Source of the DNA: an uncultured Gammaproteobacteria bacterium
GTDB taxonomy: Bacteria > Patescibacteriota > Patescibacteriia > JAHIZJ01
Assembly (NCBI GenBank): GCA_964371245.1
Contig: CAYJKP010000001.1
Span: forward strand, 53,128 to 117,127
DNA length: 64,000 nt
Direction of reading: 5' to 3'
Shown one piece after another: positions 18,715 to 26,401 of this stretch. Within the stretch, counting starts at the first letter, position 1. Every line of letters begins with the position of its first letter. The notes beneath the pieces are model-generated. The model was not told the DNA's origin. It saw only the letters and a program-made list of their open reading frames with translations, and ran no database searches. The translations under genes and the position numbers were made by a program.

Positions 18715-18729
18715 TATTTTTGCCAGCTT

Positions 18730-19071
18730 ATGAAGCTCTTCAAAACCACAATTATCTTCCTCTATCTCATTGCGGCTTTTTGGGTAGCGTTCGGCGCGCT
18801 CTGGCTGTTCCGAGAGTCGGATTACCGGTGGTTCTACGCGATCGGGGCGTTTAGCAATGCCATAGTGCTCTCACTTTTGACGTATTTCATGAGCCGCGGC
18901 CGGCGCTGGGCGTATTGGCTGCTGGTTATTCTCTTAGCCGCGAATGTCATCCTGACCATCATGGACCAGGTCGGCTGGTTTGACCTGGCCTATCTCGTGC
19001 CGGCAATCGCGGCGCTGGTTCTTACCATCGGCGCACGGCGGGACATCCTTCATCGAAACGCGCGGATATGA
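18730..19071 (+). CDS. small membrane protein
   Basis: 113 aa with three hydrophobic helices. Confidence 0.45.
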   Translation: MKLFKTTIIFLYLIAAFWVAFGALWLFRESDYRWFYAIGAFSNAIVLSLLTYFMSRGRRWAYWLLVILLAANVILTIMDQVGWFDLAYLVPAIAALVLTIGARRDILHRNARI

Positions 19072-19802
19072 ATGAAGTCGCATACAAAACGTCATTAGCG
19101 GAAATCCGGCGGAGAAAAAAGGCCAGCCTGGTACTGGTCGCGTCCCTCGTTGCCGGATACATCCTGGCCGGGGGCGTCGTCCGGAACATGAGTCCTCGTG
19201 AAGTCTTCGTGAGCGCGCTCGCGATCGGGTGCGTCTTGCTGGCGTTGCGGGCACTGGCACTGATGCCGTTTGCCCGCCTGGCAAAAAGGGTCGTCCAGGC
19301 GACGGACGAATATCTGAAGATGGATTCAACGGTGTATCGGTACGAAGATATGGCGCGTCTGTCGGTGCGGGAGACGAGCCAGGGCACTTTCCGTGATGTT
19401 CGCATCGTGCTGAAGGACCGTCGGAGCGTCGTGGTTGATGCGCTGGACGATTTCCCTGGGTTTCTCAACGGATTGTCAGCTCATGTTGATAAAAAGATCG
19501 TTGCGATATCGCGCGAACCGCTCGATTATGACCACTTTGTATTTTACCCTATTGTCGGGCTGGTAACCGGCGCCCTGGTCACAGGCGTCATTGAGTATGT
19601 TCAAAAACGTGGTGGAAGCGCTGTCACAGTCATCGCGATCATATCGGCTGTCCTTCTCTTTGCGTTAGGCGCATATTTCATCGCCACGCGGCCGCTCTCC
19701 ATGCGCTATGCCGGGAGAACGAGATTGGCTGAAATTCTTTGCGGTGTCATAAGCGTTTGCATTGGTCTGGCTTGGCTTCTCTGGCCCCGGCTTTCTAAAT
19801 AG
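19068..19802 (+). CDS. hypothetical membrane protein
   Basis: 244 aa with N- and C-terminal TM segments. Moderately GC-rich. Confidence 0.5.
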   Translation: MNEVAYKTSLAEIRRRKKASLVLVASLVAGYILAGGVVRNMSPREVFVSALAIGCVLLALRALALMPFARLAKRVVQATDEYLKMDSTVYRYEDMARLSVRETSQGTFRDVRIVLKDRRSVVVDALDDFPGFLNGLSAHVDKKIVAISREPLDYDHFVFYPIVGLVTGALVTGVIEYVQKRGGSAVTVIAIISAVLLFALGAYFIATRPLSMRYAGRTRLAEILCGVISVCIGLAWLLWPRLSK

Positions 19803-19994
19803 GTTTGAGAAAAAAATCTTATGCCGTTGGAGCTGTTGGTCGGCGGCGATGACAAAACCGCCGCGGTCGTTCAGTTTGGATTTTTTTAAATACACGTCGC
19901 CAGGTGCATATAGCCCGAAGAACGGCCATAGGTTTGTCAGCAGAAACAAAAAACCAGCCATCTCCAGCCGGTATTATTATATTTAGGCGATTAA

Positions 19995-20378
19995 TTAGCC
20001 CCTCTCTAATAGATGATTTACCCGTTGGACGAGCTCCGATGGAGTAATCTGGGTTTTAATAACGAAGTCAGCTGCTCCAAATTGCTTGGCCTGTTCCTTC
20101 ATGTTGTTCTTTGCTAAATTGGTCAGGACAATGACCGGAATCTGGCGCGTTGTCGTTCCGCTTTTTAGTTTTTTTAAGACATCTAGACCGCTTTCGCTGA
20201 CGAGAATCAGATCAAGTAGAATGATATCAGGTTTTTCAGTATTAGCTGCGGCTATTCCTTCCGTACCGTTCCGAGCCGAGACTAAACGAAATCCTTCTCG
20301 CTCAAATTTAAAACGATACATCTCGATTTGATCGTGATCGTCCTCAATAAGCACTATTTTAGGCGTTCTTTTCGTCAT
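19995..20378 (-). CDS. single-domain response regulator (CheY-like receiver)
   Basis: 127 aa with IVLIEDD...DIILLDLIL...K receiver-domain motifs. Confidence 0.85.
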   Translation of the reverse strand: MTKRTPKIVLIEDDHDQIEMYRFKFEREGFRLVSARNGTEGIAAANTEKPDIILLDLILVSESGLDVLKKLKSGTTTRQIPVIVLTNLAKNNMKEQAKQFGAADFVIKTQITPSELVQRVNHLLERG

Positions 20379-20411
20379 AGTAATTGGCGTAATGCTCGGC
20401 TTAAGACTTAC

Positions 20412-21602
20412 TTATTTTTTTGAACTTACCGTCTGGGCGATGGGGAGTTTAATATAGAAATTAGAGCCTTTTTGCAACTCACTTTCAGCCCAGACCTTTC
20501 CATGATGACCCTCTATTATTTCTTTTACAATATACAAGCCCAAACCGCTACCGTCCGTATACATGGCCGTGGCGTTATCAGCGCGGGCGAATTTTCGGAA
20601 AAGCTTACCGACTTCATTCTTAGGGATACCGATGCCATTATCGCTGATCGTGACAATCAGGCTGTGACGTTCCGGTTTGAGCGAAACAGTAACGACGCCT
20701 TTTTGTTTCCGGGTAGCTCGCGCCTCTTTGACCATTACAGTGGAAGGCGTGTATTTCAGTGCGTTGCTAATCAGATTATAGACTGCCTGCTCGAGATATT
20801 TTCTATCACCCTGCATGACCGGCAGCGTGTCTGGTTTCTCCCAGTGTAAATTGATCTGCCGCTGCCTTGCTTCCATCAGCGAGTTCGTTACCGCTTCATC
20901 TACCACGTCTTCGAGCTGGATAAACGGCGTACTCGGTCTGATGGAAAATTTATTGCTGTCAAATTCTGAGGCGCAGAGAATATCATTAATGATCATTTCC
21001 AGCTTAATGCTTTTATCCTCTACGCCTTTTAGAAACTCGCGCTGTTTCTTTTTTGACAGATGGTCCATGTCACCTTCAAGCATCATCGAGATGACGCCCT
21101 TGATGACTGATACGGGCGTGCGCAGTTGATGGGAAGCGATATCGAGAAATTCCGACTGCGTTTTAAGCACTTTTTGCAGATGCTTATTTTTTTCGGTAAT
21201 ATCATGCGTCTGCTCCGTTACCTTCTGCTGCAGCGTTTCAGTAAAATCTTTTAAAGCGCTTTTTGCCTTTTTCTCGGAAAAATTGGCTTCGATTATGTTC
21301 TCCGTGCTTTTGTCGAAATAAAAACCATAAACGATTATGAGCACGAACAACGAAATTATCAGTGTTTTTGAAATGGTGCGCTCGATAGCAAAAGAGGTGA
21401 TGACCAGCAGGACAATTAAGATCATGCTGATCAATAGATAACGGGCGAACAAGCATTGATTAAAACGGGATTCGCAGTAGTGGCAGCGTTTCGAGGGTGG
21501 TCCGCCGACGTTTTTGGCCAGCCAGCAGTTGCGATTTACATACTGCGCACCGCCAATACCCTTATTATTAGACGGAATTTGTTGGTCGGTCGGCGCTGGC
21601 AC
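20412..21602 (-). CDS. sensor histidine kinase (HisKA + HATPase_c)
   Basis: H-box SHQLRTPV. N/G boxes NAlKYT and DNGIGIP...GSGLGLYIV. N-terminal TM segments. The start is uncertain; an alternative ATG lies at 21425. Confidence 0.85.
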   Translation of the reverse strand: MPAPTDQQIPSNNKGIGGAQYVNRNCWLAKNVGGPPSKRCHYCESRFNQCLFARYLLISMILIVLLVITSFAIERTISKTLIISLFVLIIVYGFYFDKSTENIIEANFSEKKAKSALKDFTETLQQKVTEQTHDITEKNKHLQKVLKTQSEFLDIASHQLRTPVSVIKGVISMMLEGDMDHLSKKKQREFLKGVEDKSIKLEMIINDILCASEFDSNKFSIRPSTPFIQLEDVVDEAVTNSLMEARQRQINLHWEKPDTLPVMQGDRKYLEQAVYNLISNALKYTPSTVMVKEARATRKQKGVVTVSLKPERHSLIVTISDNGIGIPKNEVGKLFRKFARADNATAMYTDGSGLGLYIVKEIIEGHHGKVWAESELQKGSNFYIKLPIAQTVSSKK

Positions 21603-22032
21603 TGTCTTTTTTTATTAGTTTTTTAAAAAGAACATACATCAGAGCGGCCAGACAGATATTGGCGAAGCTGGCCAAAAGGGTTAGGAACGATACCAGCAAG
21701 TCGAGACCCCAGGCGAATGTACTGTAGGTATCATAATAGAGCAGGCCGAAGGAGAGCAGGAATAGAGCGGCCGTAAATCCATAGACAAACCGCAGTTCTC
21801 CAGGATCTTTGGTCACCGGGGAGACATTCTTTTTTAAAACCTTTTTTGAAAATAAACCGAAGAGTTGGTAAAGAATGTTAAGTTTCATTGAAAAGACGCC
21901 AAAGAAAAATAGCAGGCCGGTTATTAACACTAGCCAGATGTTGTGGATGAGAAAGGCCAGCAAGGCCAAGAAACCGCACGTGGCTCTGAAAAAATTCAAA
22001 GCGCGATTGTCGTAGATTGTGCATTGGGGCAT
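21568..22032 (-). CDS. hypothetical polytopic membrane protein
   Basis: 154 aa with four hydrophobic helices. Overlaps the kinase start. Confidence 0.45.
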   Translation of the reverse strand: MPQCTIYDNRALNFFRATCGFLALLAFLIHNIWLVLITGLLFFFGVFSMKLNILYQLFGLFSKKVLKKNVSPVTKDPGELRFVYGFTAALFLLSFGLLYYDTYSTFAWGLDLLVSFLTLLASFANICLAALMYVLFKKLIKKDSASADRPTNSV

Positions 22033-22090
22033 AGTTTGTTTTGTTTAAAAAATTATCAAAATAACAGATAGGTGGAAGCTAAGAAGCACG

Positions 22091-23446
22091 TCAATGTTTC
22101 AAGCAGTCTTTCACCGCCGCGCAGGCCTGCTGGACGTCACGAAGATCGTTGTAAATGTAAAAGCTCAGGCGGCAGCTGGCGGCCGGATCCAACCCGTAAT
22201 AGTGATGTGCCAGTGTGGCGCAGTGACAACCAGCTCGCGATTCCACGCCGCGCCGGCTTAATTCCTCGGCGATCGTAAACGGACTAATCCTATTATCGGT
22301 AAACGATACCAGCGAAGTTCTTTTTGCCGGATCTTTTGGTCCAAAAATGCGCAGCGAAGGTAATTGTTCCAGCAAATTCAAGCCCTCAGTAATCAACATC
22401 GTCTCGTGGTGTTCGACTCGTTTCATTGTTTCTTCAATATCGGCGGGCCGCAGATCCCTACCCGTCATAAAATATTCGGTTTTTCCTGGATGCAGGGCAA
22501 AGTCTAGCAAAAGGCGCAACGCCTGGGCTGAGATGATTGTTCCTAATATATTTGGCGTACCCGCCGTGAACTTCCAGGGCAGAGAGTTATACTCGACTTT
22601 CTCAGGGCTGACCATGCCCAGCGCAATCATGTCGCCGCCATAAAGAAAGGGCCGCATGGCTTTGAGCAGCTCGGTCCGGCCATAGAGCGCGCCGACTCCG
22701 AATGGCGCTAGCATTTTGTGGAAAGACCAAGCCAAAAAATCTGCCTTGAACTGATCAATATCTACAAACATATTTGGCACAAGTTGCGCGCCGTCGACAA
22801 GCAGGTAAGACTTTTTCTCGTCGCTCGGTTGGATATAACCGCTGGCATCGGCAATCTTCCTCACCTCGGCGAGCGGATTTTTCGTACCTAAGAAGTTAGA
22901 AGCGCCTACGCAACAGACTAGTTTCGTGCGAGAATCAACCAATGATTGTAAATGGCCGAGATCGAGTTCGCCTGTCTCTTTATCGAACTTGGCTAAACGG
23001 CACTCTACGCGGACGCCGAATTTCGGCAATATTTCTTTCGCGAGGCCATACCAGGGAACATAATTGGAGTTATGTTCCATAAAGGTTGTTACGATGTTGT
23101 CTCCATCCTTAAATTCCGTCAGTAGCGAATACATGACCGAATTGATGGCCTCGGTCGTATTGCGATAAAGAATGATGTTTTCTCGAGAGGGAGCGCCAAT
23201 AAATTGGGCGATAGTATCATAAGAAGCTTCAAAACTCTCAGTTATCTGCAGGGAGGCCTGGGATTGACCGCGATGCACGTTGTCGTATTGCGAACTCAGC
23301 TTCTTCAGAAGGTCAAACAACTGCTGCGGGGGTTGAGAGCTGGCGGCGTTATTCGTAAGAATTCGACCGGCTTTGATTGCCGGGAAAAATTTACGGATTT
23401 TTTTTGTGTCAATTGTTGTCATTTCGTTACCTGGGAATTGTTGCAT
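22091..23446 (-). CDS. cysteine desulfurase-like class V aminotransferase (SufS/CsdA family)
   Basis: PLP-lysine region SFHKMLAPFGVGALYG. C-terminal RAGCHCA (RSGHHCA-like) active-site Cys motif. Confidence 0.75.
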   Translation of the reverse strand: MQQFPGNEMTTIDTKKIRKFFPAIKAGRILTNNAASSQPPQQLFDLLKKLSSQYDNVHRGQSQASLQITESFEASYDTIAQFIGAPSRENIILYRNTTEAINSVMYSLLTEFKDGDNIVTTFMEHNSNYVPWYGLAKEILPKFGVRVECRLAKFDKETGELDLGHLQSLVDSRTKLVCCVGASNFLGTKNPLAEVRKIADASGYIQPSDEKKSYLLVDGAQLVPNMFVDIDQFKADFLAWSFHKMLAPFGVGALYGRTELLKAMRPFLYGGDMIALGMVSPEKVEYNSLPWKFTAGTPNILGTIISAQALRLLLDFALHPGKTEYFMTGRDLRPADIEETMKRVEHHETMLITEGLNLLEQLPSLRIFGPKDPAKRTSLVSFTDNRISPFTIAEELSRRGVESRAGCHCATLAHHYYGLDPAASCRLSFYIYNDLRDVQQACAAVKDCLKH

Positions 23447-23604
23447 TACTCATTCGCACCTTATATTTTAGCACATAATGCAATATTTTTCAAGTCGAAA
23501 TGATTAATTCTGTTTGTATTCAATCCTGGCGCATGTATTAGTATAAGTCGGAATAACAAAACGGTGGTCGAAGCGGTTCGACCACCTTATCGTACAAGAG
23601 CGCG

Positions 23605-24138
23605 TTACTTCAGATGCCGGCGCATCGGATGACACAGTCCGAAGACGGCCAGGGGCAGGCTGTACCAGGCACCATCCCCAGCCCGTGAGAGCAGCCAGAA
23701 CCCGACGAAGCCGAGCGGTACCATGCCGTACCAGAACGATCCATGGCGCTGCCAGTAGCTTATCCGGTACCCTTTTCTTCCGAAGAGCGAATAGGCCACC
23801 AGCGACACCAGTCCGACGAGCCACACGATCACGGCCAGGGCGACCGGCACGTGTGCCAGCGACGAATTCTCCTGGCTATGGAGAACCAGGAACCAGCCCC
23901 AGACGAGCATCCAGCAAGTTATTGCGTCCGTGCTGGTGTCGAGATACTTGCCGAACCTGGTCGCGACTTTGAGCCGGCGCGCCAGCCAGCCGTCGATGAC
24001 GTCCGTCAGGCTGGTGCCGAGAAAGAGCCACCAGGCTTCCGTCCAATCCAGCCGATGCATCGCCGCCACACATAGGGCGGCCATGGCCACACGGCTGAGC
24101 GTAATGGCTGTAACCGCCGATAGTGCAACTGCCCGCAT
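23605..24138 (-). CDS. CDP-alcohol phosphatidyltransferase family protein (GC-rich)
   Basis: Exact D-x2-DG-x2-AR-x8-G-x3-D-x3-D motif (DVIDGWLARRLKVATRFGKYLDTSTD). Polytopic membrane protein. Confidence 0.8.
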   Translation of the reverse strand: MRAVALSAVTAITLSRVAMAALCVAAMHRLDWTEAWWLFLGTSLTDVIDGWLARRLKVATRFGKYLDTSTDAITCWMLVWGWFLVLHSQENSSLAHVPVALAVIVWLVGLVSLVAYSLFGRKGYRISYWQRHGSFWYGMVPLGFVGFWLLSRAGDGAWYSLPLAVFGLCHPMRRHLK

Positions 24139-24264
24139 CGGAAACCTCCTCTTCTGTCCGGTTTGCGCACACCTAGTTTCCGCGATACTATAGTACTGGA
24201 TGAGGGGGAGGTCAAGAGGGGGAAGGTGAGTGAATCATAAAGTAACTAGTTATAAATAAAAGAT

Positions 24265-25218
24265 ATGAATTTTATAATAAAAAGAGAGTTTTTTACGAAT
24301 ATTGTGTTCGAGAAAGACATAGAATCAATTCCATGGGAGGGATGTTTGTTGTCGTTAATGGCAGATCCATCTACAATGCGTGATTATGAAATACGTATCA
24401 CCGGAACTGGTGATTATAAACCATTACTATCTGTCGATAAAACAAAACAATTATTAGAAACGTTAGACATAATAGCGTTTCATAGACAATCCTATATTGA
24501 GCTCGGCGACAATTATGCAATCTATAAAGAGGGCTTGGGCAAAACAAGAGGATTTGAATATTATCCATTTGAAGAATTAAATCCCTCAGGTAATTTAGTA
24601 AACGACGGTAGTATACCCGAGATAATTGATTTATCAGGCAAGCTTGTTAAAGAAGAAATTAAGAATGCTTTATGTTGGTATCGTCGTTCATTGTCAGTAA
24701 AATATGCATATGAATCATTGTTTTTTCATATTCTTGCTGTGGAAGCTTTAGCTGGTGATATAAAAATATATCCTAGGTGTTCGGAAAACGAGGAGATGAA
24801 GGAATGTATAAAACACCACTCGGTTAATAAAATACCTGTTACTAATAAGGATAAATTAAAAAATATTCTAGGAGAAGAAAAATACCGTTTGATTTATAAA
24901 AAACAAATTAGAAACAATTTATTTCATGGTAAATATGTTGATGAAAATGAATGCCATTCATTATTAGATGGTTTTTCTTTAAAAATTAGCGAGCATATAA
25001 AAAAAGAGCTAGGGTTAAGCGTTGCATTACAGAAACAACCGCGAAGTAAATATGCTTGGAAACGGCCAGGGAGGGCAATATGTTTATATGACACATTATT
25101 CCCAACTGAGTCTATTCCTAAAGATACTCCGACAATTGTCGAGTTAATAAATGCATATACAAATGGTTTTATTCCATTAGCACCAAAGAATATTCGTTTA
25201 AAAAGTGATGAAAAGTAG
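24265..25218 (+). CDS. AT-rich orphan protein with a candidate HEPN-like Rx4H motif
   Basis: 317-aa ORF whose codons are dominated by AAA, ATA, TTA and AAT, unlike all neighbouring genes. Contains IRNNLFHG (R-x4-H). Confidence 0.55.
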   Translation: MNFIIKREFFTNIVFEKDIESIPWEGCLLSLMADPSTMRDYEIRITGTGDYKPLLSVDKTKQLLETLDIIAFHRQSYIELGDNYAIYKEGLGKTRGFEYYPFEELNPSGNLVNDGSIPEIIDLSGKLVKEEIKNALCWYRRSLSVKYAYESLFFHILAVEALAGDIKIYPRCSENEEMKECIKHHSVNKIPVTNKDKLKNILGEEKYRLIYKKQIRNNLFHGKYVDENECHSLLDGFSLKISEHIKKELGLSVALQKQPRSKYAWKRPGRAICLYDTLFPTESIPKDTPTIVELINAYTNGFIPLAPKNIRLKSDEK

Positions 25219-25273
25219 TGCTTAAATTACTACGTCCGTCCCCTCCTCTTCCGCCGTGCATTAAACAACGCTT

Positions 25274-25636
25274 ATGTTAATCAAACATCTTTCCCAATGC
25301 CCCGAATTCATCGCCGGAGACAAGACATTGCTCCGTGAGCTGATCCATCCCGCAAATGACAAAGCGGCTATTCGTTACAGCCTGGCGCACTCGATCGTGA
25401 AAGCCGGCAATGCGTCCGTGGCGCACAGTTTGAAAACGACCGAAGTGTATTATATTCTCGAGGGCCAGGGCGTGATGCATATTAACGATGAAACCGCCGA
25501 AGTGTTCCCGGGCGATGCCGTGTATATCCCGCCAAACGCCACGCAATATATCGAGAATACCGGCGATAAGGATTTACTATTTCTCTGCATCGTCGATCCA
25601 GCCTGGCGGAAAGAGGATGAGAGCATAACACCATGA
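25274..25636 (+). CDS. cupin-domain protein
   Basis: 120 aa with HSLKTTEVYYILEG...FPGDAVYIPPN, the cupin 2 conserved barrel motifs. Confidence 0.7.
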   Translation: MLIKHLSQCPEFIAGDKTLLRELIHPANDKAAIRYSLAHSIVKAGNASVAHSLKTTEVYYILEGQGVMHINDETAEVFPGDAVYIPPNATQYIENTGDKDLLFLCIVDPAWRKEDESITP

Positions 25637-26130: not shown

Positions 26131-26401
26131 ACGTGAGCGCGGGCGCGGAGACCCGCGCTCGGAGGATATTGATTTTCTCAAAGCGCATCTCTCCGTGGAT
26201 GCGCGTAGTCAATTATTTGGCACACACCATCAATGACCCAGGTACAAAAAACCAAACCGATCGCACGCTCGAAAGCATGCGCTCGGTTGATACCAATAAT
26301 AATACCACCGAGCGAACCCTTTCTAGGTCGCATTAAATATTAATGTCCCAATTATTATAAAAATATGTTACAATTAATTCCTATTATTAATACTTGAAAA
26401 A

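Follow-up and report, generated by a model that had tools for sequence, protein, structure and literature searches.

HEPN domains are defined by a four-helix up-down bundle, in which an Rx4-6H motif, its arginine followed by a polar residue (N, D or H), lies where helix 3 ends and continues into the following loop, a conserved acidic residue, typically part of Ex3[KR], is located in helix 2, and a variable insert separates helices 2 and 3; catalytic HEPN proteins are metal-independent RNases, with a composite active site formed in the HEPN dimer (PMC3710099). ApeA, a HEPN protein with known structures (9hxm, 9hxi, 9hxj and 9hxn), forms a decameric or dodecameric ring, cleaves tRNA anticodons or phage RNA, and protects against phages; its N-terminal domain supplies one half of the pocket for the activating ligand and part of the interface through which the ring forms (bioRxiv 10.64898/2026.01.26.701840). 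Here, we describe a HEPN-like gene located in a 64-kb stretch of DNA from a small patescibacterial genome (contig CAYJKP010000001.1 of assembly GCA_964371245.1, positions 53,128 to 117,127; hereafter, the window). The gene product is an uncatalogued variant inside the HEPN superfamily, its nearest relative by profile comparison is ApeA, and the gene itself is one of the alternative cassettes in a strain-variable slot.

A first-pass annotation of this DNA had pictured the gene as a recently acquired, AT-rich orphan, with an R-x4-H motif and no other family signature, and had inferred a single-gene defence or toxin candidate, naming the Abi_2 and Swt1-like families as proteins in which such a motif is common. 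It had proposed a profile search, a structure prediction, and a comparison with sister genomes as checks, and had named universal conservation of the gene at this locus as a result that would speak against it.

Results

Invariant residues of a rare family

The sequence IRNNLFHG, noticed in the first-pass annotation, is present in the HEPN-like protein, and its R216, H221 and G222 were located. An R-x4-H motif in one sequence alone is weak evidence: among shuffles of this protein, R-x4-H occurred in 27% and R-[NDH]-x3-H in 3.8%. The RNNLFHG motif stands above chance because R216, H221 and G222 are invariant across 30 homologues (30/30 members of alignment A1, with 17-41% identity to the query). 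Only one further column of A1, E160, is invariant, and the motif is thus the most constrained feature of the family. Columns R140, C172, I201 and L219 are near-invariant, and the position following R216 is occupied by N or H in 25 of the 30 members.

The 30 homologues, each ca. 300 amino acids long and 27-41% identical over matched stretches, were recovered at E<1e-3 when 1.84 billion representatives were searched exhaustively with phmmer. Among 5.8 billion clusters, a word-indexed search matched the HEPN-like protein to itself only, and the family profile retrieved five proteins in the same type of search. The protein had no match in Pfam, NCBIfam or PADLOC at E<=10, and the best PHROGs match had an E-value of 0.15; a Pfam scan of all 30 members revealed nothing real. 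The statement that no family signature can be recognized thus holds for curated libraries. The label "orphan" is only partly right, since the gene is rare and missing from these libraries but has 30 homologues. No family member was found by tblastn against phages and plasmids or by a scan of viral contigs, and scans of loci with back-translated family alignments were unproductive, the alignments being too divergent. We conclude that the family is rare, absent from curated catalogues, and composed, judging by sequence, of predicted RNases of the HEPN type.

Predicted fold

The structure of the protein was predicted with AlphaFold2 (AF2) using the family alignment, which produced a very confident model with a four-helix HEPN core (predicted local distance difference test score, pLDDT, 94.5; predicted template modelling score, pTM, 0.87). 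In the model, an alpha/beta domain (residues ~1-110) is followed by helices (117-163), a beta-hairpin segment (165-193), further helices (195-249), and a beta/alpha extension (Table 1). The core has the up-down arrangement of HEPN domains. The R-x4-H motif lies where the definition places it, with a helix spanning residues 215-220 and with H221 and G222 in the loop that follows. The acidic residue of helix 2 is the invariant E160 (codon at nucleotides 24742-24744), located in a helix formed by residues 148-163; another modelled helix, 130-142, lies in the same segment. The basic residue expected at position +4 of a typical Ex3[KR] is missing after E160 (E-A-L-A-G). The variable insert between helices 2 and 3 corresponds to residues 164-214 and consists of a Cys/His beta-hairpin and short helices. 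The model fold, the invariant E160, R216, H221 and G222, and the distant link to ApeA described below support the HEPN reading made in the first pass. A Foldseek search of the model against PDB and BFVD gave no significant match.

In nine family members, the insert carries a C-x2-C...C-x2-C zinc ribbon, which is reduced to C172, C181, H184 and H185 in the window protein. C172 is kept in 28 of the 30 members; four cysteines are present in nine members, and none in two. The C-terminal extension contains the subfamily motifs IPxDxPSIxEL and PPK[YN]IR (conserved columns of alignment A2). In 20 of 21 distant members (P0015-P0035 in A1), the last residue is aromatic (Y, F or W), often after P-x-x, while the window subfamily ends with PPK[YN]IR and a short basic tail in place of this residue. 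The aromatic C-terminus of the distant members might be a docking or an autoinhibitory tail.

Relationship to ApeA

Among PDB sequences, a profile search picked out one suggestive match, Ec4ApeA (9hxm, E 0.012, ApeA residues 222-384). For profile-profile comparison, an ApeA profile, A3, was built from an Ec4-type ApeA encoded by a metagenomic contig and seven full-length plasmid homologues. A3 matches the Ec1-Ec4 ApeA structures at E-values from 1e-267 to 6e-26, and its true ApeA proteins from plasmids match PADLOC model PDLC02157 at E 1e-8 to 1e-5. An hhalign comparison of A1 with A3 yielded a probability of 92.6%, an E-value of 4.6e-7, and a score of 59.7 (78% probability when a single ApeA sequence was used). 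Reversed profiles scored 13, and 30 block-shuffles scored 21.8 +/- 2.8 on average and 29.3 at most. Family residues 21-163, aligned with ApeA residues 233-387 (the Mid domain and HEPN helices 1-2), carry the signal; taken by piece, HEPN helices 1-2 reach 68% and Mid 47%. The helices 1-2 segment aligns with ...AFRFFR...ALESL... of ApeA. The catalytic motifs fall in register (LY..RNxLFH versus LYLLRNxIVH of ApeA), a short match that is not significant alone.

The N-terminal domain of ApeA (residues 1-198) gave no hhalign match (probability 0.6%), and neither did the ApeA tail. ApeA models (PADLOC PDLC02157; Pfam HEPN_Apea and ApeA_NTD1) had no matches to the window protein at E<=10 or to family members P0007, P0016 and P0024 at E<=1. 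Thus, the profile search proposed in the first pass produced no match to Abi_2 or any other Pfam family, but profile-profile comparison links the protein to ApeA. We conclude that the family is distantly related to ApeA at the profile level.

Some observations concern ApeA itself. Complete E. coli genomes yielded no intact ApeA of the Ec4 type by megablast, and a search with an Ec4ApeA fragment returned fragments only. An Ec4-type ApeA homologue annotated as "hypothetical protein" adjoins the anti-phage gene ppl on an Enterobacter IncHI2 plasmid (NZ_CP042489.1, 128630-133307), and neither half of the Ec4-type ApeA from metagenomic contig L062 has a Pfam match at E<=1.

A strain-variable slot

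The HEPN-like gene is strikingly AT-rich compared with its neighbours, as originally noted, and is the most AT-rich of the 52 open reading frames (ORFs) of at least 100 amino acids in the window. Its GC content is 0.320 (z -4.27) and its third-position GC content (GC3) is 0.240 (z -5.21), the z-scores being calculated relative to the 51 other non-overlapping ORFs of this size, the next lowest of which has a GC content of 0.433. Within the ORF, GC varies between 0.29 and 0.34, versus 0.45-0.62 in the flanks, and the 1-kb bin that contains the gene has the lowest GC (0.371) among the 64 bins of the window. No ORF of at least 60 amino acids overlaps the gene on either strand, and no clear σ70-like promoter or Shine-Dalgarno sequence was seen upstream.

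A scan with the cupin gene located to the right of the HEPN-like gene identified a sister contig, L073, a 312-kb JGI (Joint Genome Institute) contig with the same gene order. Besides the two flanking genes (Table 1), proteins encoded by o165, o60, o384 and BNR512 have identities of 84%, 100%, 92% and 93%, respectively. In blastn alignments, L073 DNA and the window share 96.7% identity as far as position ~24224, and homology returns at the cupin start codon at 25274; breakpoint alignments place the cassette boundaries at ~24219-24225 and 25266-25273. In place of the HEPN-like gene, L073 carries an unrelated cassette of ca. 720 bp with a gene for a 222-amino-acid protein (L073:1769-2437, + strand; GC ~0.3), which matches neither the family profile hidden Markov model (HMM) nor Pfam, PADLOC or PDB entries. 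Since a different AT-rich gene occupies the same slot, the HEPN-like gene is strain-variable and acquired, being one of the cassettes that alternate in this swap slot, which lies between the CDP-OH and cupin genes. The view of the gene as an acquired one is therefore borne out by its foreign composition and by its replacement in L073, and universal conservation at the locus does not apply, the gene being absent from L073 and from 48 related loci. A metagenome search for an empty-site pattern found nothing.

Two side observations were made in L073. The 222-amino-acid protein contains a D...E-V-K pattern (TDIFAEVKE) recalling PD-(D/E)xK nucleases, which is a visual impression only. A gene for an IS200-like Y1 transposase (Pfam Y1_Tnp, E 1.5e-8) is located at L073:3400-3954 (+ strand) between homologues of o165 and the DUF975 gene; it is absent from the corresponding part of the window (26141-26326).

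An identical HEPN-like protein is encoded on 18 contigs from a single population, recovered in many samples. These contigs are 99.98-100% identical to the window and hence carry no comparative information; "variant" calls of upstream genes on them reflect differences between gene callers and not real variants. In contig L072, which comes from the same population and has 2.8x coverage, five substitutions within 19 bp (window 24784-24802) split the gene into ORFs of 145 and 109 amino acids. Given the low coverage and the clustering of the substitutions, this interrupted allele was treated as assembly noise; it is probably an assembly error, though it may be an inactivated allele.

Surroundings of the gene

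The position of the gene between a GC-rich CDP-alcohol phosphatidyltransferase gene and a cupin gene agrees with Pfam (coordinates of these and other features are collected in Table 1). GC content of the CDP-OH gene is ~0.62 versus a window mean of 0.51, so that the lowest-GC gene of the window and one of its highest-GC genes are adjacent. At the window locus, scans revealed no tRNA and no Rfam element; an integrase and significant flanking repeats are likewise missing. Two candidate repeats were rejected. A 10-mer, CCTCCTCTTC, occurs in only two copies in the 64 kb, in direct orientation, bracketing the gene (0.08 copies expected; none of 100 shuffles reached two), but a simple target-site duplication does not account for it, since copy 1 lies ca. 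70 bp outside the breakpoint and copy 2 is missing in L073. G-rich and C-rich stretches flanking the gene were dismissed as inverted repeats, since 57% of shuffles score as high.

On the left, window positions 19745-23526 encode a response regulator, a histidine kinase, a DUF4395 protein, and a class-V aminotransferase; the last of these, with a best match of 79%, places the window in Patescibacteria. Searching with the aminotransferase led to 48 Patescibacteria loci, and most of them retain this four-gene block intact. Beyond the block, the other side is not conserved in these loci and contains no family member, and no CDP-OH homologue is present within 10 kb of the aminotransferase block. 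Since the 48 loci have only the block in common, they offer no clean empty site. In L073, the block is missing between homologues of window 18717-19744 and 23527 onwards, which represents an indel between close relatives.

Table 1. Coordinates of the HEPN-like gene, its predicted parts, and neighbouring features in the window
Feature	Position	Strand	Evidence
AT-rich strain-variable cassette	24220..25270	.	blastn, breakpoint alignments, GC steps
ApeA-like HEPN protein ORF, 317 amino acids, ATG start	24265..25218 including stop	+	ORF listing, identical protein on 18 contigs, AF2 model
N-terminal alpha/beta domain (~residues 1-110), like ApeA Mid domain; putative dimer contact or sensor	24265..24594	+	
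HEPN helices 1-2 (residues 117-163), near-invariant R140, invariant E160	24613..24753	+	A1, model, ApeA match
Cys/His-rich beta-hairpin insert between HEPN helices 2 and 3 (residues 164-194)	24754..24846	+	A1, model strands 165-168 and 190-193
Predicted catalytic motif R216-N-N-L-F-H221-G222, end of HEPN helix 3	24910..24930	+	Invariant R/H/G, model
C-terminal beta/alpha extension (residues 250-317), no ApeA counterpart	25012..25215	+	Conserved A2 columns, hhalign
CDP-alcohol phosphatidyltransferase (CDP-OH) gene, left flank	23605..24138	-	Pfam CDP-OH_P_transf, E 6.5e-14; 99% amino acid identity in L073
Cupin gene, right flank	25274..25636	+	Pfam Cupin_2, E 6.4e-14; 88% amino acid identity in L073
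10-mer CCTCCTCTTC, copy 1, reverse complement of CDP-OH gene Shine-Dalgarno sequence, outside cassette	24145..24154	+	
10-mer CCTCCTCTTC, copy 2, inside right end of cassette, absent from L073	25242..25251	+	

Loci of homologues

At four other loci, family genes have a GC content 5-12 points under that of their surroundings, and foreign composition is thus seen at 5/5 loci. No neighbour is conserved among the homologue loci examined, which argues that the gene acts alone. Some of the homologues are found next to MazE-PIN, together with nSTAND1, AEP primase, Rad52 and PIN genes, or with an MT-A70 and a Zeta-like gene, and several of these contexts look like conflict or mobile regions. The closest homologue (P0007, 41% identity) occupies, together with an HTH-Fic pair (HTH_17-Fic), a patch of low GC. 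Adjoining ORFs of 321 and 333 amino acids, considered as possible paralogues, are not paralogues. Directly upstream of P0007, in the same patch and after HTH_17-Fic, a 220-amino-acid ORF (L008:9305-9967, + strand) contains LRNDAVHG (R-x4-H-G) and has no match in Pfam or PADLOC; from its sequence, it may be a second uncatalogued HEPN-like gene.

Discussion

Most likely, the gene was acquired horizontally and is a toxin or defence effector of the single-gene kind. Starting from the fold, the invariant motif, the distant relationship to ApeA, the strain variability, and the foreign composition, the explanation that best accounts for the whole, and which we consider fairly probable, is that of a self-contained ApeA-like HEPN RNase, dimeric, self-silenced, and activated by a signal, that resides on an acquired cassette. 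Dimerization, RNase activity, target, trigger and defence role are putative and are drawn from HEPN and ApeA biology. The protein would consist of two modules, an N-terminal alpha/beta module related to ApeA Mid and a HEPN module with the Cys/His hairpin between helices 2 and 3 and the C-terminal extension. Two copies would pair through their HEPN domains, as do characterized HEPN enzymes, which would join two R216/H221 motifs, with E160 nearby, into a composite metal-independent RNase site. Cleavage would leave a 2',3'-cyclic phosphate, and the target could be tRNA, in its anticodon loop, or some other RNA of the cell or the phage. Since family members have no conserved partner or antitoxin gene next to them, the protein probably keeps itself inactive, and an infection or stress signal sensed by its non-HEPN parts would switch it on. 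The outcome would be translation arrest or destruction of the invader's RNA. By analogy, then, the protein is probably an RNase toxin or defence effector, acting in abortive infection or defence or as a toxin borne by the cassette.

The lack of a recognizable partner also bears on a different possibility, namely that the gene is a selfish addiction or toxin module that stabilizes the cassette or the element that delivered it, with a small ORF, an antisense RNA or autoinhibition serving as an unrecognized antitoxin. We consider this unlikely, because no conserved candidate antitoxin neighbour was seen at any locus examined, no MNT gene is present, the window locus contains no mobility gene or terminal repeat, and ApeA, the closest characterized relative, works in defence as a stand-alone protein. 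An RNA-processing enzyme with a housekeeping or regulatory role, akin to Las1 or Swt1 and not involved in conflict, would explain the strong constraint on the predicted catalytic residues and would fit with the ordinary metabolic and membrane genes that are its neighbours in the window. However, a family that is so rare (30 clusters among 1.84 billion representatives), that is absent both from the same slot of a sister genome and from 48 related loci, and whose composition is foreign at all five loci is very improbable in such a role.

The invariance of R, H, the following G and the helix-2 E, together with N or H after R in 25 of 30 members, makes it quite improbable that the HEPN domain is a non-catalytic module that binds ligands or nucleic acids, like the HEPN domains associated with nucleotidyltransferases; families of this kind typically lack Rx4-6H (PMC3710099). 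The extreme composition, the lack of a clear σ70-like promoter or Shine-Dalgarno sequence upstream, and a set of zinc ligands reduced relative to that of relatives could be expected if the gene were foreign DNA in decay that serves no function at present. Yet 18 contigs from many samples carry the ORF intact, at full length and without differences, all family-invariant residues are kept, and the predicted fold is very confident, which leaves decay highly improbable.

If the gene indeed encodes an acquired ApeA-like RNase, a bolder combined view can be put forward, which we hold only tentatively and consider rather doubtful as a whole. The protein would be the first of a class of minimal immune proteins, derived from ApeA, in which one protein is both sensor and effector and does without the N-terminal pocket domain, and the slot between the CDP-OH and cupin genes would be a hotspot of defence cassettes in Patescibacteria. 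The trigger would be sensed via the Mid-like domain, the zinc hairpin or the conserved C-terminal tail. If the RNase prediction itself holds, a stripped-down ApeA relative that has Mid-like and catalytic modules but not the pocket and ring domain would provide a natural test of which parts of ApeA serve regulation and which serve catalysis.

Patescibacteria are ultra-small bacteria with an episymbiotic lifestyle; little is known of their immune repertoire, and few defence systems have been recognized in them. The protein, if it acts as proposed, would add a defence or toxin gene to this repertoire. The slot is a precisely bounded site of cassette swapping that can be mined across strains, and, if it is a hotspot, reading such slots could reveal more defence genes of the Candidate Phyla Radiation (CPR), for example, the gene for the 222-amino-acid protein of L073. 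Accessory toxins of the HEPN type are common; what lends this finding value is the pared-down ApeA-like organization, the occurrence in a CPR host, and a swap slot with sharp boundaries. Should the prediction fail, the gene would be one more uncharacterized HEPN-like accessory gene.

Several known HEPN systems can be compared with the family. HEPN-MNT (HepT) toxins (5yep, 7ae2 and 8xdj) and HEPN-T proteins (2hsb and 1ylm) are minimal, whereas the family adds an N-terminal domain, the Cys/His insert, and the C-terminal extension. No gene for an MNT nucleotidyltransferase antitoxin is present beside the HEPN-like gene, whose neighbours are the CDP-OH transferase and cupin genes, and there was no match at the sequence level, one family member reaching a HepT-like model at E 0.091. 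The logic of Abi_2 (AbiD/AbiF) and Swt1-like systems is similar, as these are likewise single-gene HEPN abortive-infection proteins with R-x4-H. Membership in these families, which the first-pass annotation had brought up, is not borne out: Pfam gave no match with the protein (E<=10) or with the 30 members (E<=1), and, of the Abi/Swt1-type families, only distant AbiA and AbiV HEPN domains were among the best structural matches.

ApeA is composed of three domains, an N-terminal one, Mid, and a split HEPN, and has ca. 600 amino acids, while the family protein has 317 and lacks the N-terminal domain that contributes to the ApeA pocket; a different ligand pocket may be present. The insert of ApeA comprises ca. 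127 mostly helical residues, compared with 56 amino acids with a Cys/His hairpin here, and the C-terminal extension of the family is unrelated. The family is of the HEPN/ApeA type, yet, as the N-terminal domain and tail of ApeA find no match, lies outside ApeA as defined. Common to both are the stand-alone HEPN organization, the form of the motif (LY..RNxLFHG here and LYLLRNxIVHNA in ApeA), and a large insert between the helix with the acidic residue and the motif helix. Zinc binding is known from some ApeA proteins and may occur in the putative zinc hairpin of the family, and Mid and HEPN helices 1-2, including the ...R...AxExL... segment, are homologous at the profile level.
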